Shown: positions 20,137 to 56,264 of the stretch, one piece after another | Layout of the letters: the number at the start of each line of letters is the position of its first letter | Position numbering within the stretch: position 1 is the stretch's first letter | NCBI GenBank assembly: GCA_964607485.1 | Contig: CAZSKP010000004.1 | Location: 125,509-189,508 of the forward strand | Source of the DNA: an uncultured bacterium | GTDB lineage: Bacteria > Abyssobacteria > SURF-5 | DNA: 64,000 nt | Reading direction: 5' to 3' | Made by a program: the position numbers and the translations under genes | Notes under the pieces: model-generated | Told to the model about the DNA's origin: nothing | The model's input: the letters and a program-made list of their open reading frames with translations, nothing else | Database searches by the model: none

Positions 20137-20186
20137 TTCTCTGGGCGCGCGGGTGACACTCCGGCGTCAAAGAGGGAGCAAGCAGT

Positions 20187-21655: not shown

Positions 21656-21690
21656 TCTGATCACCCCTCATCTTGCCGAGAACGGAAGAA

Positions 21691-22053
21691 TCATCGCCTC
21701 TTTCTTGGCGTCATCGTCCCGAGAATTTTCCGGAGAAGCTCCCTGTCGGCATTCTTGAACCCGACAAACAGGACGCCCGCGCAGTAGCGCAACGTGTTCT
21801 TGTCAAACGTGTACCAGAGGATATTGGCCAGCGTATCCAGCCGCACGGGCCGGCCTTCCTCATCCGTCGTCTCTATTGAAAGGTTGAGAATAGTCTCGTT
21901 GGATATGTCCATTTCCGTCGTGAAGGAAAGGCCTTCGATGCTTATGTCCTTCACGCGCAGACGTTGTTCTCTCTTGGCGGGAAACACGGCGGTTGCGACA
22001 AGCGATTCAGGCGCGCGATACCGTGGAGACAGGCGTCTTTCTTCCTGAATCAT
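21691..22053 (-). CDS. Stand-alone PilZ domain protein
   Basis: RRLSPR (RxxxR) and DISIEG (DxSxxG); RBS GAGGAG. Confidence 0.85.
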   Translation of the reverse strand: MIQEERRLSPRYRAPESLVATAVFPAKREQRLRVKDISIEGLSFTTEMDISNETILNLSIETTDEEGRPVRLDTLANILWYTFDKNTLRYCAGVLFVGFKNADRELLRKILGTMTPRKRR

Positions 22054-22218
22054 CGGGGACTCCTCAAATGGGCGACGAAGGACCCTCTTCCTCCATAACC
22101 GTATCGACATAAAGATCATATACGAATCGCCCCGTTCTTTTCAAGAACATTATTCCTGGGGGCTCCCTGTCTTAAATGGTGCATTCTTGAACGGCGTATC
22201 GTTCGAAAAATAGTTGGA

Positions 22219-30126: not shown

Positions 30127-30196
30127 GTCATTCCCACGAAAGTGGGAATCCAGTTTACAGGGGAAAATCATGGATTCCCGTTTTCACGGGAATGAC
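30127..30196. repeat. GTCATTCCC-family (dRS3-like ATTCCC-N8-GGGAAT) double hairpin between convergent genes
   Basis: GTCATTCCCACGAAAGTGGGAATCCA...TGGATTCCCGTTTTCACGGGAATGAC. Confidence 0.85.
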
Positions 30197-30263: not shown

Positions 30264-31586
30264 TCAGCCGAGCTTCAGCACATACCTTACAACGAACAAC
30301 GCGGCGAATATGTAAACGAACGCGTTCACTTCCTTTCCGCGCCCGCTCAGCAGCTTGATGAGAGCGAATGAGATAAACCCGAACGCGATGCCGTCGGTGA
30401 TGCTGAACGTGAGCGGCATCATTATCATGGTGAGAAACGCCGGCACGGATTCGGTATAATCCTCCCACTTTATCGATTTCACACTGGTCATCATCATGCT
30501 CCCGACGATAATCAGCGGCGGCGCTATCACGGGATAGAGCTGGAGACCGCCGTACGTAACCGCGCCCCCGACCATCTTCGCCAGCGGATAGAAGAAGAGC
30601 GCGAGGATGAACAGCGACGCCGTCACCATGTTGGCCAGCCCGGTACGCCCGCCCTCCGACACGCCGGCGGCGCTTTCGATATAGCTCGTGACCGTCGAGG
30701 TGCCCAGCGTGGTGCCGACGACGGTGCCGATGGCGTCTGAAAGCAGCGCCCGCTCGGCGCGGGGAAGCTTGCCGTTGACCATGAACCCGGCCCGCTCGCT
30801 TATTCCCACGAGCGTGCCGACCGTGTCGAACAGGTCGAGGAAGAAGAACACGAATATGACCGCCAGCACATCCGCGATGCGGCCCGTCCTGAATGCGCCG
30901 AAGATGTCCAGCTTGAACAACGTCGGGGCGATCGATGGCGGCGCGCCCACGACTCCCTCGAATTTCACCATGTTGAGCATCCACCCCGCGAGGGCGGTGG
31001 CGAGGATGCCGATGAGAATCGCACCCCGTATGCGCAGGGCGAAAAGTAACGAGATGAGCAGCACTCCGAACAGCGAAAGCAGGACGGGGGCGCTGTGAAG
31101 GTCGCCCAGCCTCACCAGCGTGCTCGGATGGCCGACGACGAGTCCGCCCCATTCCATGCCCACGAGCGCGATCAGGAGGCCTATCCCGACGGCGATGGAG
31201 CTCTTGAGCGACTGGGGAATCGCGTCCACGAGCCGGGCGCGGAAGCTGAACAGCGACAGGAATATGAACAGCGCGCCCGAGATGAAGTTCGCGCCGAGGG
31301 CAACCTGCCAGCTATAGCCCATCAGTTCGCAAATGGTGAAGACGAAGAAGAAATTGTGGCCCATGGCGGGCGCCAGCGCGATGGGGTAGTTGGCCAGCAC
31401 TCCCATGAGAAACGTGGCTAACGCGCTTGCGACGCACGTGGCGACGAGCACCGCTCCGTGGTCCATGCCGCAGATGCTCAACACCGCCGGCTGCACGAAA
31501 ATGATGTAGGACATCGTCATGAAGGTGGATAATCCTGCCACGACTTCCGTGCGGACGTTGGTGCCCCTTGACCGAAGCTCGAACAT
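30264..31586 (-). CDS. NCS2/AzgA-family purine permease
   Basis: TEVVAGLSTFMTMSYI, APAMG, DLFDTVGT, YIESAAGV.EGGRTG. Confidence 0.95.
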   Translation of the reverse strand: MFELRSRGTNVRTEVVAGLSTFMTMSYIIFVQPAVLSICGMDHGAVLVATCVASALATFLMGVLANYPIALAPAMGHNFFFVFTICELMGYSWQVALGANFISGALFIFLSLFSFRARLVDAIPQSLKSSIAVGIGLLIALVGMEWGGLVVGHPSTLVRLGDLHSAPVLLSLFGVLLISLLFALRIRGAILIGILATALAGWMLNMVKFEGVVGAPPSIAPTLFKLDIFGAFRTGRIADVLAVIFVFFFLDLFDTVGTLVGISERAGFMVNGKLPRAERALLSDAIGTVVGTTLGTSTVTSYIESAAGVSEGGRTGLANMVTASLFILALFFYPLAKMVGGAVTYGGLQLYPVIAPPLIIVGSMMMTSVKSIKWEDYTESVPAFLTMIMMPLTFSITDGIAFGFISFALIKLLSGRGKEVNAFVYIFAALFVVRYVLKLG

Positions 31587-31660: not shown

Positions 31661-32155
31661 TCATCGTTCTCGCTGCACGTAGAATTTCTCCTTGAGCCTG
31701 CGTTCGACCACCTCGGGCACGAACGAGCCTATGTCCCCCCCAAACTCTATTAACTCCTTCACGAGGCTGGAGCTGATGAACGAATAGTTCTCGTGAGTCA
31801 TCAAGAATATCGTTTCGTAGGAATCGTTGAGCTTTCGGTTGGTCAGCGCCATCTGGAATTCGTACTCGAAGTCGGAGAACGCCCTCAGCCCGCGCACGAC
31901 GCAGCACGCCTTCTTCTTGCGTATGTAATCGACGAGCAGGCCGTCGAAAGAGTCGACGCTCACGCTCGGAAAGTCCTTGGTCAACTCGCGAATCATTTCC
32001 ATCCGTTCGGAAATCGAAAAGAATTCGGTTTTCCGGATATTGTGCGCGATGGCGACGATGAGCTCATCGAAAAGCCCGACGGCGCGCTCGATAAGGTCGA
32101 TGTGACCGTACGTAATAGGGTCGAAGCTGCCGGGATAGACGGCTATTCTTTTCAT
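31661..32155 (-). CDS. coaD: Phosphopantetheine adenylyltransferase
   Basis: YPGSFDPITYGH, RGLRAFSDFEYE, ISSSLVKE. Confidence 0.97.
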   Translation of the reverse strand: MKRIAVYPGSFDPITYGHIDLIERAVGLFDELIVAIAHNIRKTEFFSISERMEMIRELTKDFPSVSVDSFDGLLVDYIRKKKACCVVRGLRAFSDFEYEFQMALTNRKLNDSYETIFLMTHENYSFISSSLVKELIEFGGDIGSFVPEVVERRLKEKFYVQRER

Positions 32156-32157: not shown

Positions 32158-33336
32158 TTATTCCCCCAATTCCTTCATCGCTGATCTCTTGGCCGCGTCA
32201 TATACGTGTTTCAAGGGCACGCTGTGGCTGCGCGCGATTTTCCTGCAATCTTCGAATTCGGGCGAGACGGACATCAATTTCCCTTCTCCCGTTCCCACCT
32301 TCACTCTGACCGGCCCCCACTCGGTGGACACCTCTATCACCTTGCGCTCCAGCTTCAGCCGCGCCTCACGGTGATATCTTACACCAAACGTGGTGGATTC
32401 TGAAAATAATATCGAAGCCAGAGAGGATGTGTCGGCCGGCTCGCACAGTACGGTGAGGAGAGTGCCGGGCCTCGTCTTCTTCGCCTGTATGGGCGTGAGA
32501 TACGCCTCCAGCGCCCCTCTTTCAAACAGCAGCTCCATGAGATACTCGAAATTTTCCGGATTCATGTCGTCGATGGTGGTGCTCATGACCGTAACGTCGT
32601 CGCCGGCGTAGGCCTCCGTCGGCTCTCCGACGACGGCCCGCAGCAGGTTGGGCCACTCGGGAAACTCGCGCTTGCCCGCGCCGTAGCCGTGGAACAGCAC
32701 CTTCTGCGGGGGAAGCGGGCCGAAGCTCTTCGCGAGCGACCTCAGGATGACGGCGCCCGTGGGCGTGACGAGCTCGGCCTGTGGGCCGCGTGAATAGATG
32801 GGGATGCCCTCGAGCAGCTTCATCGTCGCGGGCGCGGGCACCGGGAGCACTCCGTGCCTGCACTCGACGAAGCCGCTCCCCACGTTGACGGGCGACGAAT
32901 GCACTTCGTCGATTCCCAGCCTGTCGAGTCCGACGAGCGCGCCGACCACATCGACGATCGAGTCGATTGCGCCCACCTCGTGAAAACGGATCTTGTCGGG
33001 CGTCGTGGAATGAATCGCCGCCTCGGTATCCGCCAGCAGGGTGAAAATCCGCTCCGCCTTGTCGCGTAGTCCCTGGGGCAGGGAGCTTGAGTGGAGAAGT
33101 TCGAGGATGTGGTTGAGTCCGCGCTCGCTGGGCTGGGGTTCCGTCACATCGACGAAGAAGCTGGTGGCGGTCAAGTGCCGCCGCGAGGTCTTTTGCGCGC
33201 GTAGTTCGTAGCCCTCGAGCGGAAGCAGGCGCAGCCCTTCTCGCAGGTCCTCGATGTCAAGGCCCGCGTCGAGGAGGGAGCCTACGAGCATGTCGCCGCT
33301 GATGCCGGAGAAACAGTCGAAATAGATATGTCTCAC
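32158..33336 (-). CDS. larC: Nickel pincer cofactor biosynthesis protein LarC
   Basis: YFDCFSGISGDM, FHEVGAIDSIVD, PVPAPAT, ELVTPTGA, TIDDMNPE, PEFEDC. Confidence 0.95.
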   Translation of the reverse strand: MRHIYFDCFSGISGDMLVGSLLDAGLDIEDLREGLRLLPLEGYELRAQKTSRRHLTATSFFVDVTEPQPSERGLNHILELLHSSSLPQGLRDKAERIFTLLADTEAAIHSTTPDKIRFHEVGAIDSIVDVVGALVGLDRLGIDEVHSSPVNVGSGFVECRHGVLPVPAPATMKLLEGIPIYSRGPQAELVTPTGAVILRSLAKSFGPLPPQKVLFHGYGAGKREFPEWPNLLRAVVGEPTEAYAGDDVTVMSTTIDDMNPENFEYLMELLFERGALEAYLTPIQAKKTRPGTLLTVLCEPADTSSLASILFSESTTFGVRYHREARLKLERKVIEVSTEWGPVRVKVGTGEGKLMSVSPEFEDCRKIARSHSVPLKHVYDAAKRSAMKELGE

Positions 33337-33354: not shown

Positions 33355-34104
33355 TTATTTCCGCCTCGCGATGATACTGGCAAAGTAGCCCGCGCCGAAT
33401 CCGTTATCTATGTTGACCACCGAAACGCCCGGAGAGCAGGTGTTCAGCATTCCCAGGAGAGCCGCCAGCCCGTCGAAGCTCGCGCCATAGCCCACGCTGG
33501 TAGGGACGGCGACGACAGGGCATTCTACCAGACCGCCCACGACGCTTGCAAGTGCTCCCTCCATGCCGGCCGCCACGACGATGGAGTCGGATTTCGATAT
33601 GTCGTTTCTCCGGTCGAACAGCCTGTGTATTCCCGCCACGCCGACGTCGTATATCCGCGTCACGCGGCATCCCATCATCTCGGAGGTGACGGCGGCCTCC
33701 TCGGCCACGGGAATGTCGGAGGTGCCGGCGGTGATGATGGTGACTTTGCCCTTGCGTCGTCCTATCGGACGCACGACGATCGTCATCGCGCGGGCGTCCC
33801 GGTTGTAGCGGGCCTTCTTGTGGATTGCGCGGACGGAGTTGAATGCTTCGGGTGAGACCCTCGTCGCCAACACGTTGCATTCGCGCTCGACCATCTTGTC
33901 CACGATGGCCACTATCTGCTCCGAGGTCTTGTTCTCGCACAGGATCACCTCGGGAAATCCTCTTCGGAGGTGGCGGTGGTGGTCGAGCTTGGCGAATCCG
34001 AGGTCTTCGTAGGGAAGCGACTTGAGCGCCGACATCGCGTCGTCAACGCTCATCTTGCCTCGCGCGACGGCGAGCATAATCGAGCGGAGTTTGTCGGGGT
34101 GCAT
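33355..34104 (-). CDS. larB: NCAIR-mutase-like LarB
   Basis: DHHR..R.GFPE, AGTSDIPVAEEA, DVGVAGIHR, AGMEGAL, PTSVGYG, VNIDNGFGA. Confidence 0.95.
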   Translation of the reverse strand: MHPDKLRSIMLAVARGKMSVDDAMSALKSLPYEDLGFAKLDHHRHLRRGFPEVILCENKTSEQIVAIVDKMVERECNVLATRVSPEAFNSVRAIHKKARYNRDARAMTIVVRPIGRRKGKVTIITAGTSDIPVAEEAAVTSEMMGCRVTRIYDVGVAGIHRLFDRRNDISKSDSIVVAAGMEGALASVVGGLVECPVVAVPTSVGYGASFDGLAALLGMLNTCSPGVSVVNIDNGFGAGYFASIIARRK

Positions 34105-34123: not shown

Positions 34124-37100
34124 TCATATTTTCTTCCTTGAGCTTTTCTTGAACATGGTTCCGAACACGGACTCCTTCTTGTACTGCTTCGACATGCCTA
34201 TCGTCACCAGGATATCCCGTCCGGTTATCTCCTCTACTATAGCATGAAGATAGCCCGAAGCGGAATCTGGGAGCCTGGCGATGCTCTCGCAGTCGTCGAT
34301 CAGCACGACGTGCGAATTGGCGAGCTTGTTGAGAAGGCCGTTCCAATCGAAGGTGGGCGTGAGCGCGAGCATCTCCGCAAGCTTCTCGACCGAAAGCAGG
34401 GAAACCGGCCCCTTGAAGATTCCCCGCAGCGTGTTGCACAATGCGTTGAAGAAATGGTTGCGGCGCTGCTGGTCATTCTCGATGACCAGCAGGGGGAACT
34501 TGTTGCGCCATTTCTTGTTCGGGTTCCTGAAGGCCTCGTGGAAGTCCTCAAAGACCTGGCTTCCTCGGAAGTTGCTCGTCGTGAGGTCGGGGTCGGGCGA
34601 CAGGAACTCATCCAGGAAATCCTTCTGTTTTTCGGCGACCTCCGGCTCTGCGACCGCTTCCGACTCCTCCGCGACTCCTTCCTCGACCACCTGCTGTTCC
34701 TCTTCCGGAGCGGCGACCGTCGCACGCGCAACGGATGCTATCGCCTCGGCAGCTTCCTTCCCTCGGCTGATGATGTCCGGATGCCCCTCCAGCTTCACGA
34801 GCAGTCCGCTCTCGAGGAAGTGGAGCAGATACTCCTGCAGGTAGTTCATCTTGATTGGGGGCACCTTCGACGCCAAGACGACCTGTGCGTCCTTATCCGT
34901 CAACGCCTTGAGGAAATTATACAGTTGAATCTGGTCGTCGGCGGACACATTTGAGACGTCAAAGTCGTCAATGATGAGCAGCCGGAGCGCTTCCTGCCAC
35001 TGAGCGACTGTCGCCGGGTCTGTCTTTACCATATTCAGGAGCGACGTCAGCGAGACCAACTCGGCTGTCACTTCGGGGTCCTCCGACGTGGCCTCCTCGC
35101 CGATAGCGTGCAGGATGTGAGTTTTTCCGCAATGCGGAGGTCCGTATAGGCACAGAGGATTATACAGCTCAGCGATGTTCCGGGCTATCTTTTCGGCCAT
35201 GTTCACCGTGAACGCATCGGTTTCGGAGACCTTCAGGCCTTCGAAGGTGTGCATCCACTCGACTTGGCGCAAGCTCTCCAAAACTTCGGGGGCGACCTTG
35301 ACCGGCTCCTCCGGCGCCTCGGCTTCGACCGAGGGTTTCGGCTCGTCCGCTTGAGCCTCCGCCGGAACGCTCTCCGGAACGACGGCCTCAACGGGCCGCT
35401 CCTCAGCCCGCTCCTCAGTCCTGACCCTTTCCGCGCCGGGTTCCATTTGAGCCATCTTCGACCTCAGGGCATCGGCCTGCTTGCGCTCCTCTTTGAGCTG
35501 TGCGTCGAACCCTTCGCGAACCTTCGTCAGTTCGTTAACGGCGTCTTTGACCTGACCCTTGAGCGTGCTTGTTGCTTCTTTGTGTTTGGACTTCAACCGT
35601 GCAATCTCTTCGTCCTTCGATGCGACGGCGGCCTGAATGGCTTCCTTTTCACGGGCTCCGGCCGACGCGATCGCTTCGTCTTTCTCCGTCACCAGTTTTT
35701 CCAGCTCTACTACCTGCGCAAGAAGCTTCTTCTCCGCAGCGTCCTTCTCCTCTTCGAGCTCGGCCAGACGGCTTTCAAGCCGCCCGATCCGCTCCTGTCG
35801 GGATTCGGCCTCCTTCTCCACTTTTGCTTTTTCGGATTCGAGCCCGCCCGCCTGCTTCTTGGCCTTTCCGGCCTCCGACTTCAGCCTTTCGTAAGCCGCC
35901 TGCAGCTCGGAATAGTCCTGGCGAACCATGGCAAGCGTCTTCTCTTTTGCGGAGAGGTCGGCCTCGAGCGACGAGAATTTCTCTTTTGCTCCCGAGTCCT
36001 CTGCGGTCTGCTTCAGGAAATCTTCGCGCATCGAGTCGAGCGTGTTGTGGAGGTCGCTTATTCGGCGATCCTTATCCTTCATCAACTGCTTCTGATTCTC
36101 AGTCTCCAGCTCCGCTTCTTCCGCCGTCGTTTTGAGCTCGAGAATGCGGTCGGAGGCCTCTCTCAGCATTGTCTCGAGCGATGCGCTGGTCTCGCGGATC
36201 TCCTTTTCCTTCTCCGCGAACTGGGCGCGTTCGGCGTCGAGCTTGGCCGAGAGGTCGGATGCGCGGGCCTGCGTTTCCCCCAGCTCCTTGCGCAGTTCGC
36301 TGAGCTGACCCTCGCTCGCTTTGCGCTTGTTCTCCGCCTCCTCGACCGCCTGCGAAAGTTGCTGCTCGATGCCCGCCTTCTCCGCGGACAGCGAGGCCAT
36401 CTCGGCCTCCAGCGTGGAGAGTTTCTCGCTCAGGCCGGCCATCTGTTCGGCGCTTGACTGGAGCTCCCGGCTGCGTTTCTCAAGTTCGTCGTTGAGCTTC
36501 GAGATGTGCTCGGACGCGCTCTTCTCCTTCTCGGCCAGCAGGTGCTCGTTTTGCCTCAGCCGGTCATCGAGTTCCGTGCTCTGGGCCGTGAGGCGCTCGA
36601 TCTCCGCCGACGCCTGTTGAAGCTGGCCCTCGATTGACGCTTTGGCATCCGACAGCGCCTTCTCTTGTTCTGCCCACTGTGCGCTCTGCTCCTCGATCTG
36701 CCTGGCCGAGGTGTTCCGGACTTCCTCGACCTGCTGGGCCAGTTCGGATGCCCGGGCCTCGGCTTCGCCGAGCTTCGCCTGGAAGTCGGCCAGTTGCTGT
36801 TCGGCCGCCTCCAACTGGCGGTTGGATTGTTCGAGAGAACCGGACAGCTTCTGCTCGGAATCTTCTTTTTCTTTCGTCAGGGCTGTAAGGTCCTTCGACA
36901 GGCGGGAGACCTCGGCGTTGAGAGTCTCCATCTCCTTCTGATTCGCCTTCACTCCCTTGTCGCGCTCATCCAGTTCGGCTCTGAGGTTTCGGAGGTCGCG
37001 GTCGCGCCGCTTGATCTCGTCCTTGAGCTTGCTGATGCGCTTCGACTCGTCCTTCTCTTTGGACACGAGCAGTTGGTCGCGTTCGTTCAACTTCTCCTGA

Positions 37101-39358
37101 AGGTCGCGGGCTGCCGCGTTGAGCTTCTCAATCTCCGAATCCTTGCCTGCAATCGTCGAGTTGCGCTCTTCCACGGTCCCGCTCAGGGCTGCGACCTCGC
37201 CCGACAGGGCATCTATCTTCGACCGCAGTTCGTCCCGCTCAGAGGATACTTTATTGACCTGCTCCGCCAGGGTCCCGTTCTCGGAGCGGGCCTTCTCAAG
37301 CTCCGCCTCGATTGCTTCGACGCGGCCGGAGAGTTCCTGCGCGCGCTGGTCGGCGGATTGCGCGTTCGAGCGCTCGGCGTCGAGCGATTCCGAAAGCTTC
37401 CCGGCTTCGCTTCGCAACTGCGCTTCGAGTTCGGCTGCGGCGGCCAGCATGCCGTCCTTTTCCGAGACGATGCGCTCAAGCTCCGAACGCCCGGTGTCGC
37501 TTGACTTCCTGAGTTCTTCGAGCGAAGCCACGGCCGAAGCAAGCTCGTTCTCGATGCCTTTTCGCTTTTCGATTTCCGATTCCAGCCTGCCCGCTATCTC
37601 CAGCGCTTCCTTCTGCCTCTGCTGCAGTTCTCTGCTGACAGAGTCCAGGTGAGCCTGCCGTTCGGCGTTCTGTTCTTCCGTTCCCGTCCTGATTGAGTCG
37701 AGCTCTTGCTGCTTTGCCTCAAGCGAGGCGATCAACTGCTGTCCCCGCTCCGTCTTCTCTCGAATGGCGGCCGCGTGCTGCTTGGCGTCTGCTTCGAGTT
37801 TTGAGCGGGTCTCCGCAAGCTGCTTGGCGAGCTGCTCGCGTTTTTGGTCGCCTGTGCCGTGCAGCTCGAGCGCCTTATTGAGCTCTTCCGACCTTTGTGC
37901 CAGTTGTTCTTCGAGTTCACCGACGCGTTCGTTGAGACCCTCGATTGTCTTTTCCAGCAGGAGATTTTCGTTGTGCGCCTCGGCCGTCAGTTCCCGCAAT
38001 TCCGATTTTTCCTTGTCCTGCTGGACGATGCGCATCTCGCGCTCTTCGCTCAGGAGCTTGAGTTTCTCCTCCTTGTCTTCGAGCTGTATTCTCAGGGCAT
38101 GCAGTTCGTCTTCCTTGTCCTTCTTCAGTTGTTCCAGTTCCGTCCCGAGAGTTTTTGCGGCTCTCTCCGAGTGCTTCTGCTCATCGGCGCTGGCGGCCAG
38201 ATTGTCCGTGGCCCTTGAGAGCATTTGCTCCAGCTCTACTATCTTCGAATCTCTCTCCGAAAGGGTCTTCTCGTAGTCCGTTTTGAGCTTGTCGGTGAGC
38301 TTATCCCGCTTCTCTATCTTCTTGGTGAGGTCGGCTATTTCACTGGAAATGAGCTTCTCCTGCGATTGCAGGGTGCTGTCCTTGTTGCTCAATTCCTTCT
38401 CAAAGGCCTGAACGCGGGCGGAAAGCTCGGACGCCTCGGCCGCGGCCGTTTGCTCGCGAGATGCAGCCGCTTCGAGTTCGCTCTTGAGCTTCTGCGTTTG
38501 CTTGACCTGTTCGGCGAGTTTCTGTTCGAGCCGCTCGATTGTGGCGTTGAAGTCGCCTTCACGCTTCTTGGCCTGCGACTGCACCCATGAGCCGTATATC
38601 TGCTCTGCCGTGGCGGCGGCTTTATCTTCGCCCGTCTCGGACCGGATGACCGACAGGAACTCTTCCACGTTTTCTTTGGTCAGAGTCTGGCGGGTGAGCG
38701 TGGAGAATGTTTTCAGGTGGCCGGGCAGTTTCTTAAGATAGGCCACATCCTTCCCGGCTTCACGCATGAGTTTTTGCAGGATAGCGACGTCCAGACGCAG
38801 GCCCAGCTGCTCGCACTCCCGTTTGAGTATCTTAAGGAGAGTCTCGGGCTGAGGTGTGCCGAGGGGCGCATCTATTCCGCCCCGGAGCCGGCTGAAGAAA
38901 CGTTTGTCGAAGCCTTTCAGCTTCTCGATTGGGTACGACGAGGCCAGCAGAACCTGCTTGCCGTTGTCAACGAACGTGTCGAAGAGCGCGTAGAATCTCT
39001 CGCGGATCTTGGTATCGAGGCTGAAGCGCTCGATGTCATCGACTATCAGCAGGTCCTTGCGGCTGTATGCCTTGTATATGAATTCCTCCGAGCCGCCGTT
39101 TGAACCATTCGAATCTTCTCCAAACAGCAGCCTCTCAATCGGAAGGTGGTCGGAAATATAGAGCAGGGATATCTCCGGATGGGCGATGGTCAACTCCGAA
39201 CTCACGGCCAGGAGCAGATGTGTCTTGCCGGAGCCGCGCTCTCCGTGGATGAGCAGGGGGGAATAGCCCTTCTCGAGATTGACGACGGCTTTGCACAGAG
39301 CCACCGCAAACTTGTTGGATTCGTCCACCTCGAAAGAATCAAGCTTCAGTTCAGGCAT
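34124..39358 (-). CDS. 1744-aa protein: DnaA/Hda-like AAA+ domain, long coiled coil, second DnaA-like AAA+ domain and a third degenerate one
   Basis: YSPLLIHGERGSGKTHLL/LLIVDD/FFSRL; YNPLCLYGPPHCGKTHIL/LLIIDD; FPLLVIENDQQRRNH/VVLIDD; E/K/A/L-rich heptads in between. Confidence 0.88.
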   Translation of the reverse strand: MPELKLDSFEVDESNKFAVALCKAVVNLEKGYSPLLIHGERGSGKTHLLLAVSSELTIAHPEISLLYISDHLPIERLLFGEDSNGSNGGSEEFIYKAYSRKDLLIVDDIERFSLDTKIRERFYALFDTFVDNGKQVLLASSYPIEKLKGFDKRFFSRLRGGIDAPLGTPQPETLLKILKRECEQLGLRLDVAILQKLMREAGKDVAYLKKLPGHLKTFSTLTRQTLTKENVEEFLSVIRSETGEDKAAATAEQIYGSWVQSQAKKREGDFNATIERLEQKLAEQVKQTQKLKSELEAAASREQTAAAEASELSARVQAFEKELSNKDSTLQSQEKLISSEIADLTKKIEKRDKLTDKLKTDYEKTLSERDSKIVELEQMLSRATDNLAASADEQKHSERAAKTLGTELEQLKKDKEDELHALRIQLEDKEEKLKLLSEEREMRIVQQDKEKSELRELTAEAHNENLLLEKTIEGLNERVGELEEQLAQRSEELNKALELHGTGDQKREQLAKQLAETRSKLEADAKQHAAAIREKTERGQQLIASLEAKQQELDSIRTGTEEQNAERQAHLDSVSRELQQRQKEALEIAGRLESEIEKRKGIENELASAVASLEELRKSSDTGRSELERIVSEKDGMLAAAAELEAQLRSEAGKLSESLDAERSNAQSADQRAQELSGRVEAIEAELEKARSENGTLAEQVNKVSSERDELRSKIDALSGEVAALSGTVEERNSTIAGKDSEIEKLNAAARDLQEKLNERDQLLVSKEKDESKRISKLKDEIKRRDRDLRNLRAELDERDKGVKANQKEMETLNAEVSRLSKDLTALTKEKEDSEQKLSGSLEQSNRQLEAAEQQLADFQAKLGEAEARASELAQQVEEVRNTSARQIEEQSAQWAEQEKALSDAKASIEGQLQQASAEIERLTAQSTELDDRLRQNEHLLAEKEKSASEHISKLNDELEKRSRELQSSAEQMAGLSEKLSTLEAEMASLSAEKAGIEQQLSQAVEEAENKRKASEGQLSELRKELGETQARASDLSAKLDAERAQFAEKEKEIRETSASLETMLREASDRILELKTTAEEAELETENQKQLMKDKDRRISDLHNTLDSMREDFLKQTAEDSGAKEKFSSLEADLSAKEKTLAMVRQDYSELQAAYERLKSEAGKAKKQAGGLESEKAKVEKEAESRQERIGRLESRLAELEEEKDAAEKKLLAQVVELEKLVTEKDEAIASAGAREKEAIQAAVASKDEEIARLKSKHKEATSTLKGQVKDAVNELTKVREGFDAQLKEERKQADALRSKMAQMEPGAERVRTEERAEERPVEAVVPESVPAEAQADEPKPSVEAEAPEEPVKVAPEVLESLRQVEWMHTFEGLKVSETDAFTVNMAEKIARNIAELYNPLCLYGPPHCGKTHILHAIGEEATSEDPEVTAELVSLTSLLNMVKTDPATVAQWQEALRLLIIDDFDVSNVSADDQIQLYNFLKALTDKDAQVVLASKVPPIKMNYLQEYLLHFLESGLLVKLEGHPDIISRGKEAAEAIASVARATVAAPEEEQQVVEEGVAEESEAVAEPEVAEKQKDFLDEFLSPDPDLTTSNFRGSQVFEDFHEAFRNPNKKWRNKFPLLVIENDQQRRNHFFNALCNTLRGIFKGPVSLLSVEKLAEMLALTPTFDWNGLLNKLANSHVVLIDDCESIARLPDSASGYLHAIVEEITGRDILVTIGMSKQYKKESVFGTMFKKSSRKKI

Positions 39359-40748
39359 TGGTGCCCCCGACCGTTATGCCTTCAATCCGCAACGTGGGCT
39401 GCGCGTCCGAGACGGGCACTCCCTGACCGTCTTTTCCGCAGGTGCCTACCGCGAAGCCGAGGTCGTCGGCCACCATGTCTATTCCGGCGAGCACCTTCGA
39501 TGAGTTTCCGATGAGGGAGGCCCCGCGAACCGGCTCCTTCACTTCTCCGCCGCGGATCACGTATGCCTCGTTCACCTCGAACATGAAGTCGCCGTTTATC
39601 GTGTTGACCTGGCCTCCGCCCATCTTGCGGACGAACAGTCCCTTCTCAGTTGCCGCGACCACGTCCTGCGGCCTTGCCGTGCCCGGCACGATCAATGTGT
39701 TCGTCATACGCGGAATCGGCCTGTGCCGATGCGACTCGCGTCTGCCGTTGCCCGTGGACCTGCCGCCATCTTTCTTCGCCGTGCCCAGGTCGTACATGTA
39801 CGTCTTGAGGACGCCGTTCTCGACCAGCACGGTGCATTCCGAGGGCGTTCCCTCGTCGTCGAAGGCAAACGAGCCCCGCCTGCCGGCGAGAGTTGCGTCG
39901 TCGTGAACCGACACCATCTCCGATGCTATTCTCTCGCCCCGTTTCCGGGCGAACACGGAAAGCCCTTTCTGTACGAGGTCGGCCTCGAGACCGTGGCCCA
40001 CCGCCTCGTGTATCATCGTTCCACCCGCCTCACTGCCGATGACCACCGGCATCACGCCCGTGGGCGCCGGCGAGGCCCCGAGCATGGTGAGCGCCCGCTG
40101 TGCGGCACGTCGGGCGATTTCCGACGGACCCATCTGCTCGAATATCTCGAAGCCGACGCTGCCGCCGATGGGCTCATAGCCCGTCTGTATTATGCCGTCC
40201 TTTTCCGCAACTGCCTGCACTACAAAGATGACGTGAACTCGCTCATCGGCGGCGAAAAGCCCGTCCGAATTCGCGATGATGACGCGCTGCCGAGAGTCGC
40301 CATACCTCACGTGTACCTGGGTTATCCTGTCGCCAAGCGACCACGCAACCTCATTCGCCTCAAGCACTTTCGAGACTTTATCGTCTGCAGCGACGGATGA
40401 CGGATATGTGATCGCCTTTGTGCCGAACGAGGTCGTGTAACCCTCTGGAAATACGTACTTTCCGACGGGCGCATTGACCCCCCTGCTCACCCGCTCGGCC
40501 AGCTCGCGCAGGCCGGAGGGAGTGAGGTCGTTGGTGGAGGCGTACGCGGTCATCTCTCCCACAACTACCCTGAGACCGGCGCCCCTGTCGGTTCCGCTGA
40601 TGACGCGCTCAATCTTGCTGTCCTCACACCCCATGGAAACCGACAGCCGTTCTTCCACGAAAATCTCTGCAAAATCTCCGCCATTCCTGAGTGCCGCCTG
40701 CAAGATTTTTGGAATTTCTCTTATCGTCTCTATGTCGTTCACCCCCAT
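39351..40748 (-). CDS. tldD: TldD family metalloprotease
   Basis: HEAVGHGLEAD, DDEG, PRMTNT, GGGQV, CGKDGQGVPVSDAQPT. Confidence 0.95.
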   Translation of the reverse strand: MGVNDIETIREIPKILQAALRNGGDFAEIFVEERLSVSMGCEDSKIERVISGTDRGAGLRVVVGEMTAYASTNDLTPSGLRELAERVSRGVNAPVGKYVFPEGYTTSFGTKAITYPSSVAADDKVSKVLEANEVAWSLGDRITQVHVRYGDSRQRVIIANSDGLFAADERVHVIFVVQAVAEKDGIIQTGYEPIGGSVGFEIFEQMGPSEIARRAAQRALTMLGASPAPTGVMPVVIGSEAGGTMIHEAVGHGLEADLVQKGLSVFARKRGERIASEMVSVHDDATLAGRRGSFAFDDEGTPSECTVLVENGVLKTYMYDLGTAKKDGGRSTGNGRRESHRHRPIPRMTNTLIVPGTARPQDVVAATEKGLFVRKMGGGQVNTINGDFMFEVNEAYVIRGGEVKEPVRGASLIGNSSKVLAGIDMVADDLGFAVGTCGKDGQGVPVSDAQPTLRIEGITVGGTNA

Positions 40749-40770: not shown

Positions 40771-40799
40771 ATTATACGCGCGGCGGGCTCGAAAGTCAA
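40771..40799 (-). promoter_or_regulatory. Sigma70-type promoter of the tldD operon
   Basis: Minus strand TTGACT-17 bp-TATAAT. Confidence 0.75.
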
Positions 40800-43452: not shown

Positions 43453-44544
43453 TCACAGATACGTATCGAGGCCGCGTTTCTTTAGTTCGTCCACGACGCG
43501 TCGCACGTCGGGAGCGCGGTCTTTCGCGCACACCAGGATCGCGTCCTCGGTCTCGATGATGACGATGTCTTTCAGTCCGATGACGGCGACCAGCTTCTTG
43601 GTGCTGTGGATGATGTTGCCCGACGATTCGATGGAGAGCACCTCGGCGTTCAGGAAGTTGCCGTCGGCGTCCTTCGGCCATATCTGTTCCATGGCGGCCC
43701 AACTGCCGATGTCGTTCCATCCGAAATCGCCCTTGAGCAGCAGAACCTTCTTGGCCTTTTCCATGACGCCGAAGTCGATGGACTCGGGCTGGAGCGAGGC
43801 GTACACCTTCTCGACGGCTTTCCTCTCGGTGCCTTCGGCGATGGCCGCCTCTATCTTCATCAGCCCGTCGTAGAGTTCGGGCAGGTGGGTGCGAATCTCT
43901 TCGAGTATCGTGTTCGCGGTCCAGACGAACATGCCGCTATTCCACATGTAGTTGCCCGCTTTGAGGAACTTCTTCGCCACGGCGCGCGTGGGCTTTTCCT
44001 TGAAGGCGACGACCTCATAGACATCCTCGCCGTTGACGCTGTCCACCTTGTCGCCGATCTGAATGTAACCGTAGCCCGTCTCGGCGAAGGTGGGCTCGAT
44101 GCCGATGGTGACCAGGTGGTTTCCCTTCCGGGCGACCTCGGCGGCGGCCCTGGCCACCTTGCGGAAGCGGCTGGCGTTTCCGATGAGATGGTCGGAGGGC
44201 AGGACGAGCATGACGGCGTCTTTCCGACGCGCCCTGATGTGGATTGCGGCCAGCCCGATGCACGGCGCCGTGTTCTTGCCTTCGGGCTCGATGATGATAT
44301 TTTCGCTGGGGACCTCGGCAAGCTGCCTGTCTATCTCCTTGAAATGGATGTCTCCGACCACGATTATCACGTGGCTGCCGTCAACGAGCGGGCTCAGTCG
44401 CTCGACGGTTTCCTGTATCATGGTCTTGTTGCTGACGATGTCGAGGAGCTGCTTGGGCTTTGTCCTGCGGCTTCTCGGCCACAACCTCGTGCCCGAGCCC
44501 CCGGCCATTATGACCACATAAAGCTGGCTGTCCTTCTTTGTCAT
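43453..44544 (-). CDS. manC: Mannose-1-phosphate guanylyltransferase
   Basis: IMAGGSGTRLWPRSR..PKQ, EPEGKNTAP, PSDH, ETGYGYI, WNSGMF, SIDFGVME, WNDIGSW. Confidence 0.93.
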   Translation of the reverse strand: MTKKDSQLYVVIMAGGSGTRLWPRSRRTKPKQLLDIVSNKTMIQETVERLSPLVDGSHVIIVVGDIHFKEIDRQLAEVPSENIIIEPEGKNTAPCIGLAAIHIRARRKDAVMLVLPSDHLIGNASRFRKVARAAAEVARKGNHLVTIGIEPTFAETGYGYIQIGDKVDSVNGEDVYEVVAFKEKPTRAVAKKFLKAGNYMWNSGMFVWTANTILEEIRTHLPELYDGLMKIEAAIAEGTERKAVEKVYASLQPESIDFGVMEKAKKVLLLKGDFGWNDIGSWAAMEQIWPKDADGNFLNAEVLSIESSGNIIHSTKKLVAVIGLKDIVIIETEDAILVCAKDRAPDVRRVVDELKKRGLDTYL

Positions 44545-44645
44545 ACCTCTACCCCCCTGGTCCCAAGAAGAGGAACGCGCCGCCTCGGTGCGAGGAAACC
44601 GCGTCATGGGATTTCAGCGCCCGTTTCCGCCTCTGAACGAGCGAG

Positions 44646-45353
44646 TCAATTCTTTTCGAAATATTCACGCGCCTCCTTGTGCATCCGATTCAGTTGGTCC
44701 GTGAGGCCGGCCCGAATCTGTTCCAACTGTTCATTCGTCGCGTCGGGCGGCACGAATATCGGCGGCTCGTAGAAGAACACGATTCGAGTGAACGGCAGCG
44801 GCAGGAGCGTTTTGTCCCAACTGTTGAACATGATCTTTCTCTTCGCCCACCACATCACGGGAATCAACGGCAGGCCCGTGTCCCTCGCCAGTCTTATTAT
44901 ACCAATTTTGGCGACGCCGAACGGTCCGCGCGGCGCGTCGGCGACCAATCCGCCGCTGCAATGCGTGCGGTTGATTGTGTCGATCATCACCTCGAGCGCC
45001 TGCTTTCCGCCACGCGTGCTCGACCCGCGAGCGCTCTGGTAGCCGAACAGTTTCAGGACTCGGGCGATCACTTCGCCGTCCTTGCTTTGGCTCACCATGA
45101 TGAGCCCGTCCCGGTTGCGGAAATAATACACGTAGTACAGCAATCCCTGATGCCACGAGACGAACAGGCTGGGCTTGCCCTCGCGCAGGAACTGGTCCTC
45201 GTTTTCCTTTCCGATGATGGTGATCCGGCAGGTGCGGTATATCGCGGTCGCAACGAGGTAGAACAACCTCGGCGCAATCGCCAGCAGGAGGCGAAACTTC
45301 CAACCGTATTTTGCCTCAGATTCGCCGGCCAATGCGCGCGTCTCCGTCGTCAT
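44646..45353 (-). CDS. DUF374 / lysophospholipid acyltransferase family protein
   Basis: WHQ, SQSKDGE, RGSSTRGG, DAPRGP, SWD...P.PF. Confidence 0.85.
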   Translation of the reverse strand: MTTETRALAGESEAKYGWKFRLLLAIAPRLFYLVATAIYRTCRITIIGKENEDQFLREGKPSLFVSWHQGLLYYVYYFRNRDGLIMVSQSKDGEVIARVLKLFGYQSARGSSTRGGKQALEVMIDTINRTHCSGGLVADAPRGPFGVAKIGIIRLARDTGLPLIPVMWWAKRKIMFNSWDKTLLPLPFTRIVFFYEPPIFVPPDATNEQLEQIRAGLTDQLNRMHKEAREYFEKN

Positions 45354-45354
45354 G

Positions 45355-46194
45355 TCAGCCCTTGAAGATGCCGAGCGCGATCGCCACCAGCCCGACCGCC
45401 CAACAATAATATGCGAACAGATGAATCCTGCCCCGCTTGACGACTCTCAACAATACCACCAGCGCGGTGATTCCGGCAACGGCCGCCACGAGCGTTCCGC
45501 ACAGCATCGCCGGCATGCTCGCCGAAGCAGGCGCCGTGTTGCCGGCAGCCGAATGGCCTTTCAGTTCGAACGCGAGCGCGCCCAGTATCGCCGGGACCGC
45601 CAGCAGAAACGAAAATCGCGCCGCCAGCTCGCGCGGCACACCGAGCAGGAGCCCGACGGCTATCGTCGCGCCCGACCGGGATATGCCCGGAACGATTGCG
45701 AGGCCTTGCGCCGTTCCTATCAGAAGGGCGTGCACCAGTCCGACGCGTTCCGGAGCACCCGCCCCCGCGTCGGCCTCAGGCTCGCTCCTCCAGACAGTGC
45801 CTATGAGAACCAGCCCCGTGATCAGGAGCCCGATGCCGGCTGCGGTCGTCGAGGCGAACATCCGCTCGAATTGCTTTGAGAAGACTACCCCGATGAACGC
45901 CGTAGGGACGCATCCGACCGCGATTGCCGCAAGCATCCTTTCGGCCGGTTGCTCGCCCAGATTTCTGTTGACGGCGATTCTGATTGCCGCCCGGACCAGC
46001 TCCACGACATCCTTTCGGAACACTATCAGGATGGCCGCGAGCGTGCCCGCGTGCAGCATCACGTCAAACAGCACCTGCGGCTCGCTCATGCCGAACAGGC
46101 CCTGCAATATGACCAGGTGCCCCGAACTGCTTATGGGCAGGAATTCGGTGATGCCCTGCACCAGCCCCAGAATCACCGATTCAATAAGAGAAAT
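45355..46194 (-). CDS. uppP: Undecaprenyl-diphosphate phosphatase; probable ATT start at 46194 (GTG at 46176 is the alternative)
   Basis: LGLVQGITEFLPISSSGHL, PGISRSGAT, RFSFLL. Confidence 0.93.
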   Translation of the reverse strand: MSLIESVILGLVQGITEFLPISSSGHLVILQGLFGMSEPQVLFDVMLHAGTLAAILIVFRKDVVELVRAAIRIAVNRNLGEQPAERMLAAIAVGCVPTAFIGVVFSKQFERMFASTTAAGIGLLITGLVLIGTVWRSEPEADAGAGAPERVGLVHALLIGTAQGLAIVPGISRSGATIAVGLLLGVPRELAARFSFLLAVPAILGALAFELKGHSAAGNTAPASASMPAMLCGTLVAAVAGITALVVLLRVVKRGRIHLFAYYCWAVGLVAIALGIFKG

Positions 46195-46209
46195 GGAAGC
46201 GCCCTCGTT

Positions 46210-47289
46210 TCAAAAGACGACCCTGCGGATCGCCTCTTCGGCTATGCCGCTCGACCGAAGTTTCCCCACTATCTCCGCTTCAACATCCGGCACGAATATC
46301 CTCAGCAGCGCGCAACCGGCGGAGGGTACGATTGCGTAATCGCCCAGGCAGGCGGGAATGAGCGCCGAGTCGCCGGTCGAGACGGGAGTCTCATGCCCCT
46401 GCTTCGTCCGGATGACGGCGTTTCCGCTGACCATCATGAGCGATTCAAACCTCTTTCCGCCGGTCGATTCTTCCGTCGGTTCTTCGAGCGTCAGCAACTG
46501 GACGGCGAAGTATCGGCAGGCGACGAGGTATGCGCGCCTGTTCTTTCCCTCCAGCACCTCTATCGACTGCACCTTGTCGGGCGAACGGTCCTCGAAGTTG
46601 ATGGACCCAAGCGCCTGCTCGATGTGAAGCTGCCGGGGCTTGCCGTCGGCTTCGACCCTCCCCCAATCATACACGCGGTACGTGGTGTCGGAGTTCTGCT
46701 GAATCTCGCAGATGACCAGCCCCTTGCCCATCGCGTGCACGCAGCCTGCAGGGACGAACACCATGTCGCCCGCCGAGACGGGGAACGAATTCAACACATC
46801 GGGCACGGTATCATTGCGGATGGCGCTCTCGAAGGCCTCCTTCGTGACGCCCGGCCTGAGCCCTTTCACCAGCGTCGTTTCGGGGTCGGCGTGGATGATG
46901 TACCACGCCTCGGTCTTGGCCTCGGCGTCCGCGACCTCGGCGGCGGCTTTCTCATTGGGATGCACCTGAACCGACAGCAGGCTGTTGGCGTCGATGAACT
47001 TGTTGAGGAGAGGAAAGCGCTTGAGACCGGCGGGGGAGGAGCCGACGAGCGCCTCACCGTCCGCCTCGAACACATCGGCCAGCGTGCGGCCGGCCAGCTC
47101 GCCGTTCCTGATGAGATTGTTGTCGTCGCCCCGGCAGGATACTTCCCATGACTCGCCGATGGGCTCATCGGGAGGGAGCTTCTTGCCGAGCATTTGCTCC
47201 AGCCTTCGTCCGCCCCAGATGCGATACTTGAATATCGGCTCAAGGACGAGCGGATAGAGCCGGGGCGTGTCCTTTCTTGAGGATTTCAT
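46210..47289 (-). CDS. manA: Type I phosphomannose isomerase
   Basis: IWGG, GESWE, LSVQVHP, KTEAW, GCVHA, EIQQNSDTTYRVYDW. Confidence 0.92.
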   Translation of the reverse strand: MKSSRKDTPRLYPLVLEPIFKYRIWGGRRLEQMLGKKLPPDEPIGESWEVSCRGDDNNLIRNGELAGRTLADVFEADGEALVGSSPAGLKRFPLLNKFIDANSLLSVQVHPNEKAAAEVADAEAKTEAWYIIHADPETTLVKGLRPGVTKEAFESAIRNDTVPDVLNSFPVSAGDMVFVPAGCVHAMGKGLVICEIQQNSDTTYRVYDWGRVEADGKPRQLHIEQALGSINFEDRSPDKVQSIEVLEGKNRRAYLVACRYFAVQLLTLEEPTEESTGGKRFESLMMVSGNAVIRTKQGHETPVSTGDSALIPACLGDYAIVPSAGCALLRIFVPDVEAEIVGKLRSSGIAEEAIRRVVF

Positions 47290-47342
47290 ATCGCGGGCAC
47301 GTCTGTATCGGGGAATCGCCTTGCGACTGGCAACGTCGCCGG

Positions 47343-48314
47343 CTATTGAACGATACCGTTCAGCCTTGTCAGTATCTCTCTCGCGCCGTTTACGATGTTG
47401 TCGATAACCTGCTTTACGGTGAGCACCTCGTGTATCAGCCCCACGTTTTCTCCGCAGGCGATGGTGGCGCCGTCGAGGTCGCCGCTCGTCCATGCCTGCT
47501 GTCCGACCTTGCCGCTGATGTACACGATCAGTTCGTCCAGTGTTGCGCCCTGCTGCTCCATCTCGAGCACCTTCTGCGACGTTTCGTTCTTCATCACTCT
47601 GACGGCGTTGCGGATGGAACGCTCGATAATCATCGTGTCGGTTTCCTGCGCCTCGACGAGCCATTCCTTAAAGTTGGGATGCGCCGGGCACTCCTTGGTC
47701 GCCAGGAAGCGCGTGCCCATCACGACGCCTTCCGCTCCCAGCGCGAGCGCGGCCAGGAAGCCGCGCGCATCGGCGATGCCCCCGCCCGCTATCACGGGTA
47801 TGCTGACGCTTTCGGCGGCGCGTGGAATGAGTATCATCGATGTCACGTCGTCCATGCCCGGATGCCCGCCGCACTCGAAGCCGACGATGGTCACCGCGTC
47901 GGCCCCGACCGCCTCCGCCTTTCGGGCGAACCGGACGGCCGGCACTTTGTGTATCAGCTTCACGCCCGCCTCTTTGAGGGCGGGAACGTATGGTTCGGGA
48001 TTGCGGCCCGACGTTTCGACCACGGGCACTTTCTCGTCCGCTATCACCTCGATGTACCTCTTGGTGGTGTCGCCTTCCATGATGACGGGCAGCATCGACA
48101 CGTTCACGCCGACGGGCTTCTTGGTGAGCGAGCGCGCCTTTTGCAGTTCGTCACGAAGCTCGGATGGGTCGGGAAACGAGGCGGCCGTCATGAAGCCCAA
48201 TCCGCCCGCTTCGGAAACCGCGGAGGCGAGCTCGGCCCTGCTCAGCCACTGCATTCCTCCCTGGATGATTGGATATTCTATTCCAAGCAATTCGGTTATT
48301 CGTGTCTTGAACAT
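47343..48314 (-). CDS. Nitronate monooxygenase / FabK-like FMN oxidoreductase
   Basis: PIIQGGM, GFECGGH, VIAGGGIAD, GVVMGTRF. Confidence 0.9.
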   Translation of the reverse strand: MFKTRITELLGIEYPIIQGGMQWLSRAELASAVSEAGGLGFMTAASFPDPSELRDELQKARSLTKKPVGVNVSMLPVIMEGDTTKRYIEVIADEKVPVVETSGRNPEPYVPALKEAGVKLIHKVPAVRFARKAEAVGADAVTIVGFECGGHPGMDDVTSMILIPRAAESVSIPVIAGGGIADARGFLAALALGAEGVVMGTRFLATKECPAHPNFKEWLVEAQETDTMIIERSIRNAVRVMKNETSQKVLEMEQQGATLDELIVYISGKVGQQAWTSGDLDGATIACGENVGLIHEVLTVKQVIDNIVNGAREILTRLNGIVQ

Positions 48315-48429
48315 ATCCTCTCCTCTCCCTCTGTCAGAACTTATTTGCCTTCGTTCCTATTGGAGACAGCGCTCAAGTTGTGGCAATCCTTCGCCTGTCC
48401 GGCCCAAGCCGGGACCGGGCCGGTTCGCA

Positions 48430-49797: not shown

Positions 49798-50017
49798 CGC
49801 CTTGCTCCTTTCTCGCTGAGCGGGTGAGCTGCGGAGCCTTCGGACGCATCCGGCGATTGGAGAGCTTCGCGCCAATTGTGCGCATTATGATATATCATCT
49901 CCGCCGGCGTTTTCAAGTACGGCTCGGCAGTTTCCGCGCCGCCCGACCGGCATGCGCACGACGCAACAAGAAGCCGGACGGTCACAGGTTCATTATAAAC
50001 GTGGCGCGGCTCGGGCG

Positions 50018-51517: not shown

Positions 51518-51543
51518 TTCGCGGCCGGCCTCCAACGGGAATT

Positions 51544-56255: not shown

Positions 56256-56264
56256 CTCGAACCC

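Follow-up and report, generated by a model that had tools for sequence, protein, structure and literature searches.

What might a bacterium do with the ATPase module of a replication initiator that is carried three times on one chain, along a rod of about 150 nm, with no domain in the chain that reads a DNA sequence? The question is raised by a gene in a 64,000-nucleotide stretch of DNA (here called the window) from an uncultured bacterium (GTDB lineage Bacteria; Abyssobacteria; SURF-5), which covers forward-strand positions 125,509 to 189,508 of contig CAZSKP010000004.1 in GenBank assembly GCA_964607485.1. The gene occupies window positions 34124-39358 on the minus strand, as do all of its parts given below; the list of open reading frames (ORFs) and the translation give it 1,744 codons and a stop, with an ATG start. 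To our knowledge, DnaA-type AAA+ modules are known only from the opening of the origin by DnaA, from regulation by Hda, and from the helicase or transposition-target loading of DnaC and IstB. Judged by its sequence, the giant protein is an undescribed architecture and a new variant within the DnaA/Hda group of AAA+ proteins, with one module at its N-terminal end (module 1), a long coiled coil, and two further modules (2 and 3) at its C-terminal end.

A word-indexed search returned nine full-length homologues of 1,567-1,830 residues and 40-48% identity, which carry automatic DnaA names or are called 'hypothetical protein'; three have organism labels, two of them Candidatus Abyssubacteria/Abyssobacteria and one 'Candidatus Poribacteria'. 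The C-terminal 380 residues, searched exhaustively against 1.84 billion representatives, gave 3,665 matches at E <= 0.001 and 10 at E <= 1e-30. Among these 10 is P0016, a protein of 1,248 residues that is 26-29% identical and has the same three modules and tail around a shorter rod of about 580 residues; a search for relatives of P0016 returned P0016 itself alone. When one genome per species was scanned (185,579 species), 5 of the 93 places that matched the pattern were confirmed as loci. Within the searches made, the giant family is restricted, as far as seen, to a small uncultured lineage plus a few deeper relatives. Compared with the window protein, the members are 63-70% identical over the N-terminal 270 residues, 52-60% over the C-terminal 380 and 44-51% over the full length; module 3 alone is 61-68% identical among members and thus, for all its degeneracy, no less conserved than the other two modules. 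The states of the motifs described below were tallied over 10 family members and some of them over 11, P0016 being the eleventh.

Module 1 consists of an alpha/beta core of DnaA type (residues 1-170; 38849-39358), recognised by Bac_DnaA, by DnaA structures in the PDB and by its motifs, and of a lid that corresponds to DnaA domain IIIb (residues 171-245; 38624-38848), which the NCBIfam DnaA profile matches up to its position 341. Run against Pfam, the whole giant protein matches Bac_DnaA at E 3.1e-46 in two stretches, 12 families being listed at E <= 1; residues 1-260 alone match it at 1.3e-25, and for modules 1 and 2 alike the next-best families (AAA_22, AAA and IstB, at 1e-5 to 1e-6) are 15-20 orders of magnitude weaker than Bac_DnaA. 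The five best solved structures for module 1 are all DnaA chains (1.1e-19 to 2.1e-17), followed by DnaC at 6.5e-4. The alignment of residues 3-241 with NCBIfam DnaA (TIGR00362) is confined to domain III, at positions 107-341 of the 437 in the profile. The reading of the first-pass annotation, that residues 1 to about 240 follow DnaA domain III, is thereby borne out, and the heads match DnaA best in Pfam, NCBIfam and PDB alike, not other AAA+ clades. The catalytic residues of module 1 are Walker A at G39-T46, Walker B at D107/D108, and the box VII arginines R153 and R157; the Walker A Lys and Thr, the Walker B DD and both arginines are present in all 11 proteins, one of which has Ser for the Walker A Thr. 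A point not in the earlier annotation is that the sensor II arginine is missing: its column, identified by alignment to Bacillus subtilis DnaA, is A206 in the window protein and Ala, Leu, Gln, Lys or Asp in the family, with Arg in none of the 10 members. Module 1 also has a Gly/Ser/Asn insert in the loop that connects its strands 2 and 3. From strand 2 to the Walker B strand, where proteins of the AAA+ initiator clade have an extra helical insert (the initiator-specific motif), modules 1 and 2 have a segment of the length found in DnaA, as seen in sequence alignments only.

Like DnaA, the giant protein is built on domain III, of which all three of its modules are of the type and module 1 has Walker A and B, both box VII arginines and the lid; it differs in lacking domains I, II and IV, in having three modules in one chain with a coiled coil of about 1,040 residues inserted, and in the loss of the sensor II arginine in module 1, the finger in module 2 and the P-loop in module 3. 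No family of DnaA domain I or domain IV is among the 12 Pfam families listed for the whole protein at E <= 1. The chain opens at the domain III motif, residue 3 being TIGR00362 position 107, the alignment ends at 341 of 437, and the whole-protein score of 201.2 bits is below the cut-off of 343.9. With neither domain I nor domain IV, and with a score under the cut-off, the protein as predicted cannot act as an origin-recognising initiator; on these points too, the absence of domain I and of the helix-turn-helix domain IV and the conclusion drawn from it, the first reading stands.

The rod extends over residues 266-1304 (35447-38563), about 154 nm when extended, as delimited by a heptad score and by the absence of proline: residues 261-1306 contain none, and 76% of the residues in that region are Glu, Ala, Leu, Lys, Ser, Gln or Arg. 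The heptad score, a crude one, counts 1,014 coiled-coil-like residues within 268-1302, against 422-483 in three composition-preserving shuffles, and the family matches of the rod are all sub-threshold and of coiled-coil type. The claim of roughly 1000 residues of uninterrupted coiled coil holds in so far as neither a proline nor a globular insert interrupts them, but not for the heptad register, in which a simple model places 13 breaks over 1,039 residues, with Leu dominating the a and d positions. Two islands stand out in the conservation profile, A at residues 404-470 (37949-38149; invariant K413, D417, L422, I424, E427, L436 and E439) and B at residues 1090-1160 (35879-36091; invariant K1096, L1131, L1135, L1142 and E1151). 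Internal DNA repeats were considered as the source of the rod and rejected, the gene holding just four tandem arrays of 19-23 nt each.

Two properties of the rod bear on its geometry. Among the 10 aligned members, insertions and deletions of 7 to 141 residues fall into only four segments (258-377, 482-707, 945-976 and 976-1096), the others being of fixed length bar differences of a few residues; segment 482-707 varies from 84 to 320 residues (-141 to +95), a variation not mirrored in the other half of the rod, and W258 and W1368 lie 932 to 1,205 residues apart. Between positions g and e' (i+5), pairs of opposite charge outnumber pairs of like charge in all seven proteins tested, with permutation p values of 0.0045-0.02 in five and of 0.08 and 0.14 in two; the window protein has 25 opposite and 13 like pairs (20.3 and 22.4 when permuted; p 0.02), and P0016 has 11 and 3 (p 0.0135). 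The uncompensated indels and the charge pairing favour a parallel, in-register coiled coil of about 150 nm, most simply a homodimer, and the heads would therefore lie at opposite ends, in agreement with the earlier description of a long rod with initiator-clade heads at both ends.

Past the rod, a Pro/Glu-rich linker (residues 1305-1365; 35264-35446), already recognised at first reading, contains 9 Pro and 16 Glu in 61 residues, has a net charge of -10 and matches no Pfam family. It leads into module 2 (residues 1366-1525; 34784-35263), an alpha/beta core of DnaA type, identified by Bac_DnaA, by PDB DnaA chains and by hhalign, with its ATP site kept and no lid. Residues 1360-1530 match Bac_DnaA at 2.2e-20, the five best solved structures are again DnaA chains (2.5e-13 to 2.5e-10), and modules 1 and 2 are mutually homologous (hhalign 99.4%, E 2.8e-21). 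Walker A is kept in 11 of 11 proteins; at the second acid of Walker B, 8 have D, 2 have E and 1 has N. Phe occupies the arginine finger column in all 11, and Tyr, Phe, His, Ser or Asp occupies the second arginine column; neither column thus has an Arg in any of the 10 members, as had been noticed from the single sequence, together with the intact Walker A and B. One residue before the finger column stands an Arg in 8 of 10 members and a His in the window protein. Although fingerless, the box VII face is conserved, with F1514, E1516, G1518, L1519 and L1520 invariant.

A second, acidic linker (residues 1526-1580; 34619-34783; net charge -10), delimited by composition and variable in the alignment, separates module 2 from module 3 (residues 1581-1744; 34127-34618). 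Module 3 has E-[DNE]-D-x-x-[RL]-R in place of a P-loop, and its last residues (1724-1744) form a basic tail with a net charge of +7. The first-pass annotation had described this module as DnaA-like, with a dead Walker A and a Walker B. The dead Walker A is general, GK[ST] occurring in none of 10 members; the Walker B is less so, with DD at its place in only 5 of 10. That the module is DnaA-like is also upheld, at the level of profiles: eight module 3 sequences, P0016 included, align by hhalign to a profile of 86 DnaA-type modules with 94.4% probability (E 9.3e-8, 83 columns) and in register, the degenerate loop falling on the P-loop, VVLIDD on Walker B and DPxLTxxxF on the start motif of domain III. 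A hidden Markov model (HMM) made from module 3 alone matches the segment from P-loop to Walker B of other DnaA-type modules, likewise in register, with domain E-values down to 5.5e-7 (292 proteins). The counterpart of module 3 in P0010 has language-model features with a similarity of 0.93 to Bac_DnaA clusters, by a measure that lacks calibration for partial proteins, and its ten best family-bearing matches concur. Against Pfam, two of three module 3 sequences match nothing and the third gives STAS at E 0.23; the best PDB match of the module 3 profile (E 0.021) is at chance level; and hhalign of module 3 gives 6.5% (E 0.0056) with module 1 alone and an off-register 46% with module 2. Because the 86-module alignment, the HMM and the language-model features agree, we accept module 3 as a probable degenerate DnaA-type module. 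In the region of its former P-loop K1620, F1621, P1622, L1623, E1627, D1629, R1633, F1636 and F1637 are invariant; conserved faces that are catalytically dead, in module 2 as in module 3, fit preserved interfaces rather than decay. A membrane-targeting amphipathic helix at the C-terminus was considered and rejected (hydrophobic moment 0.21-0.29 against a mean of 0.27 for 16-mers of the head), and the protein, which has no transmembrane segment (maximum KD(19) 1.30), is taken to be soluble.

In DnaA oligomers, the protomers contact each other head to tail, the bound ATP of one meeting Arg285 of the next (PMC6868365). We tentatively read the giant protein as an ATP-gated, self-associating tether or scaffold that uses such contacts of ATP and arginine finger, a possible reading in which we place limited confidence; its cargo might be DNA, DnaA or a cell pole. 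From the pattern of finger and ATP-site losses across the modules would follow an association that is both directional and capped: module 1 would be able to give and to receive a finger, module 2 only to receive one, while module 3 would do neither and is probably packed permanently on the fingerless face of module 2. The ATP site of module 2 may accept R157 of module 1 from another rod. If the rod is parallel, the docking module 1 must come from another molecule, and ATP would drive an end-to-end or bundled association of rods, in which module 1 docks on module 2, or on further copies of module 1, of another rod. In DnaA, R334 is the sensor II arginine, and its loss blocks hydrolysis and spares ATP binding; if this role holds, module 1, which lacks the arginine, would have a long-lived ATP-bound state. 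The substitution R334A is listed in Table 3 of PMC3905854. Carried further, the same contacts would yield a nucleotide-gated cytoskeletal or tethering polymer, with the initiator ATPase fold re-used as a joining piece: rods of about 150 nm would be set end to end or in networks, the finger of module 1 completing the ATP site of the next rod's fingerless module 2, module 3 acting as the cap, and the relatives with an MshEN domain described below being the same device under the control of c-di-GMP. This fuller picture we think unlikely to be right as it stands.

Several considerations weigh against a self-associating tether. The protein is known here as the predicted product of its gene, and the neighbours of the gene carry no functional hint. 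The homology of module 3 is apparent from profile-level comparison only. The coiled-coil score and the register come from a home-made model, not a calibrated predictor, and the seven proteins in the charge test are homologues, not independent samples, two of them without significance. Moreover, modules 2 and 3 could form a self-contained ATP switch instead of taking part in end-to-end joining, with substitute fingers provided by the Lys-rich end of module 3 and by the Arg that 8 of 10 members have beside the finger column of module 2.

Module 1 is closest to DnaA itself (TIGR00362 201 bits, Hda model 108 bits, PDB DnaA 1e-19) and has its finger arginine in 11 of 11 members, as would suit a regulator of replication initiation that docks on the true DnaA in the manner of Hda, supplying a finger or capping oligomers, while the rod holds DnaA off the origin or ties it elsewhere. 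Hda is a single module of roughly 230-250 residues that works with the sliding clamp. It shares with the giant protein the DnaA-type AAA+ module, the kept finger and the absence of a DNA-binding domain, and sets the precedent for a paralogue acting on DnaA, whose ATP hydrolysis it promotes together with the clamp (PMC6868365, PMC3905854). It has no rod and no extra modules, however, and such a role would not explain why a chain of 1,744 residues has three modules and a rod whose length varies. The score of the giant protein with the Hda model (TIGR03420) is 108.5 bits, under the cut-off of 194.8; its first 12 residues are by eye the start motif of DnaA domain III with no added clamp-binding peptide apparent (no motif search was made); and DnaA boxes in the window are at chance level, 9 against 5.4 expected, a number reached by 8 of 100 shuffles. 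We regard this regulator as unlikely. Doubtful to a like degree is a bridge between DNA segments, or organiser of the chromosome, in which ATP-bound modules bind single- or double-stranded DNA with the help of the basic tail (the last 21 residues, net charge +7) and the rod links distant sites as an SMC-like analogue. Two ATPase ends on a long rod do resemble condensin-like proteins, and domain III of DnaA binds the single-stranded unwinding element through its H/B motifs (PMC6868365). Against the bridge, Pfam recognises no DNA-binding domain, the SMC-type models match the rod only (92 against a cut-off of 567), no parS-like site in the window rises above chance, and module 1 has the Gly/Ser/Asn insert in its strand 2-3 loop.

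The resemblance to SMC proteins could also lie in the course of the chain. In SMC, Rad50 and MukB, each terminus contributes part of an ABC-type head, and the coiled coil folds back antiparallel at a hinge or hook. A rod that folds back in this way, or pairs antiparallel, would bring module 1 to modules 2 and 3, and the three would form a single AAA+ assembly at the foot of an approximately 75 nm hairpin. The motifs fit a closed trio in which module 1 offers its finger to the ATP site of module 2, whose own dead face packs on the dead site of module 3, and islands A and B are similarly placed, about 140 residues after the start of the rod and about 145 before its end. However, the large indels of one half of the rod are unmatched in the other (482-707 varies from 84 to 320 residues between fixed flanks), the g-e' charge bias fits in-register parallel pairing, and neither a hinge nor a zinc-hook family was found in the whole protein with Pfam or NCBIfam; the hairpin seems to us distinctly improbable. 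Least credible by far is an artefact, whether a chimera made in assembly, two genes called as one or a pseudogene in decay. A coding sequence so long, of low complexity and repeat-like, misassembles easily; but nine independent full-length homologues (1,567-1,830 residues) and P0016 share the architecture, and the flanking genes and the 8-nt overlap of start and stop codons described below recur in other genomes. The ORF contains no internal stop in its 1,744 codons and no long tandem repeats. The head has a GC3 of 0.72, the rod of 0.75 and the C-terminal part of 0.76 (0.67-0.84 in neighbouring genes), and synonymous codon choice is uniform across head, rod and tail and nearly that of the neighbours. 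Homologues, synteny and codon usage together exclude the chimera that the first-pass annotation had named as a way in which its reading could fail.

The likeness to SMC, Rad50 and MukB lies in ATPase heads on a very long coiled coil, and the rod draws weak matches to SMC, Rad50 and JetC. The termini, in contrast, are AAA+ modules of DnaA type, and the indels argue against folding back; an SMC-type protein was rejected, since the matches lie inside the rod only and far under the cut-offs (SMC_prok_B 92 bits against 567; Rad50 models 19-26 bits). A helicase loader of the IstB or DnaC type was likewise rejected, DnaA being a far better match: the IstB helper model gives 55 bits where its cut-off is 200, and Pfam IstB_IS21 gives 6e-5 and 3.8e-6 where Bac_DnaA gives 1e-25 and 2e-20. 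Nor is this a known anti-phage defence protein, as the PADLOC matches (LmuB, JetC and PDC-M46B; E 4e-7 to 8e-4) are confined to the rod and two neighbours have none; and a mobile-element or plasmid origin was discarded because 35 plasmid records match module 2 only, none of the 35 covering at least 80% of the C-terminal query. The coiled-coil proteins Scy, FilP, crescentin and TipN are likewise long bacterial rods that act as scaffolds or polar organisers; they are not known to carry nucleotide-binding heads. Sir3 derives from Orc1. It provides a precedent for the structural use of an AAA+ ATPase-like domain (PMC5386860). In the full-text literature searched, which excludes subscription-only papers, neither a coiled-coil protein that carries DnaA-type heads nor a fusion of MshEN with DnaA was found described, and DnaA, coiled, replication, cell division and cytoskelet- are all absent as terms from the main text of the Candidatus Abyssubacteria genome paper (PMC6121073). 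The remark at first reading that no described protein of this architecture was known thus holds for the literature searched, with the qualification that uncharacterised relatives already stand in the databases under automatic names of DnaA type.

The search for the architecture across taxa brought up, besides the nine homologues and P0016, two wider groups. Many of the next-best matches (P0020-P0074, P0174-P0292) are proteins of about 650 residues with two complete DnaA-type modules and no domain IV, abundant in metagenome genomes of Gemmatimonadota and named 'DnaA/Hda family protein' or 'chromosomal replication initiator protein'. These tandem proteins resemble the giant one in carrying several DnaA-type modules per chain without domain IV; they differ in that each module has a lid, the modules are about 200 residues apart, there is no degenerate third module, and coiled coil is little or absent (0 residues in P0020 and P0032, 111 in P0022). 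The finger arginine is present in both modules in 171-174 of 186 sequences. The other group comprises P0033 (1,248 residues), P0049 (1,876) and P0120 (1,990), in which an N-terminal MshEN domain is followed by a DnaA module, a spacer of 700-1,250 residues and a second DnaA module. The MshEN domain binds c-di-GMP (PMC5013675, the main text of which does not mention DnaA). By HMM scores, the first module of P0033 is of the N-type found in the giant family (68 against 41 bits) and the second of the C-type (37 against 95 bits); the second is fingerless and shares the box VII variant of the giant family (LLxYLEEG-like). The resemblance thus extends to N- and C-type modules around a long, partly coiled-coil spacer; the extra MshEN, a lid after module 2, the absence of a module 3 and a shorter, less regular spacer set P0033 apart.

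In a careful tree of 58 modules, the N modules of the giant family, of P0016 and of P0033 form a clade with support 97/89; the corresponding C modules form one in the best tree, at 94/62 not strongly supported; and the giant N and C modules fall on the same side as the first module of the tandem family (95/86). In a quick tree, the modules of P0049 and P0120 group with canonical DnaA modules; the deep branching among giant modules, tandem family and canonical DnaA is unresolved there and partly resolved in the careful tree. Because P0033 shares both module types and both clades, the plan of N-type module, spacer and C-type module, by this phylogenetic evidence, predates the giant family. Two further fusions were noted as non-initiator uses of a DnaA-type module, with HEAT repeats and DUF835 in P0075 (812 residues) and with a CARDB domain in P0082 (948 residues). 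The precomputed Pfam lists of homologues P0002-P0010 contain PF24161 in 6 of 9 and PF28422 in 3 of 9, both of which local Pfam leaves unreported for P0001, P0003 and P0004.

Which catalytic residues are kept and which are lost is itself conserved, a pattern that suggests a device for directional assembly. If this is correct, the ATP-dependent oligomerisation of the initiator now serves structure or tethering, and bacteria would have their own counterpart of Sir3, in which an AAA+ ATPase-like domain is re-used structurally; the Gemmatimonadota tandem proteins and MshEN fusions may form, if so, one large unstudied family of non-initiator DnaA paralogues. The automatic name 'replication initiator' is misleading for these proteins.

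The gene lies in a housekeeping chromosomal setting, not in a defence island. Upstream on the same strand is a tldD-like metalloprotease gene (39351-40748), assigned by Pfam PmbA_TldD domains (NCBIfam TldD 323 bits, against a cut-off of 513), whose stop codon overlaps the ATG of the giant gene by 8 nt (ATGCCTGA), with a run of G 7 nt upstream of that ATG; the overlap recurs in loci L001, L002 and L003. The longest ORF of the tldD-like gene starts at a TTG at 40799, inside a promoter-like site, and its true start is probably the ATG at 40748, since the N termini of homologues fit there. The promoter-like site itself (TTGACT-17-TATAAT, 11 of 12 consensus positions; 40771-40799, minus strand) comes from a consensus scan alone, which found 7 sites in the region against 2.1 expected. 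Downstream, also on the minus strand and assigned by Pfam and NCBIfam, follow larB (33355-34104), larC (32158-33336), coaD (31661-32155) and a permease gene (30264-31586), and past the permease gene a terminator-like hairpin (30174-30193, minus strand), of a kind that the consensus scan finds at chance frequency (12 found, 12.6 expected). The order tldD, giant gene, larB, larC, coaD, permease is kept in L001-L005 as far as the contigs reach. The compared genomes are close relatives, the neighbouring genes being 73-86% identical, and for this reason no functional link is drawn from the conserved neighbours.

Elsewhere in the window, Rfam and tRNA scans found no RNA gene, dnaA is not among the annotated genes, and a link to a replication origin or segregation site was rejected, DnaA boxes and parS being at chance level. 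Fifteen ORFs of the window (91-652 residues) match nothing in Pfam, PHROGs or NCBIfam, among them four in a row at 54954-61207 on the plus strand (652, 520, 359 and 428 residues). G+C is 0.471 at 6001-8000 and 0.455 at 62001-64000, against 0.55-0.63 elsewhere; these two stretches, which hold unannotatable ORFs at 6283-7665 and 62169-63958 and match no phage family, could be foreign DNA. An ORF of 388 residues without a family (43606-44772, plus strand) is taken as a shadow ORF because it sits opposite a real gene of NTP_transferase/ManC type (43453-44607, minus strand). A signalling cluster at 17150-22119, apparently unrelated to the giant protein, encodes an HDOD/HD protein, a GAF-PAS histidine kinase, a ClpB-D2-like AAA_2 ATPase of 351 residues and a PilZ-domain protein. 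Cell-envelope sugar genes (43453-49875, minus strand) comprise those for the ManC-type nucleotidyl transferase, BacA/UppP, phosphomannose isomerase and phosphomannomutase, and adjoin a ResB-like cytochrome c biogenesis gene (50018-52318).

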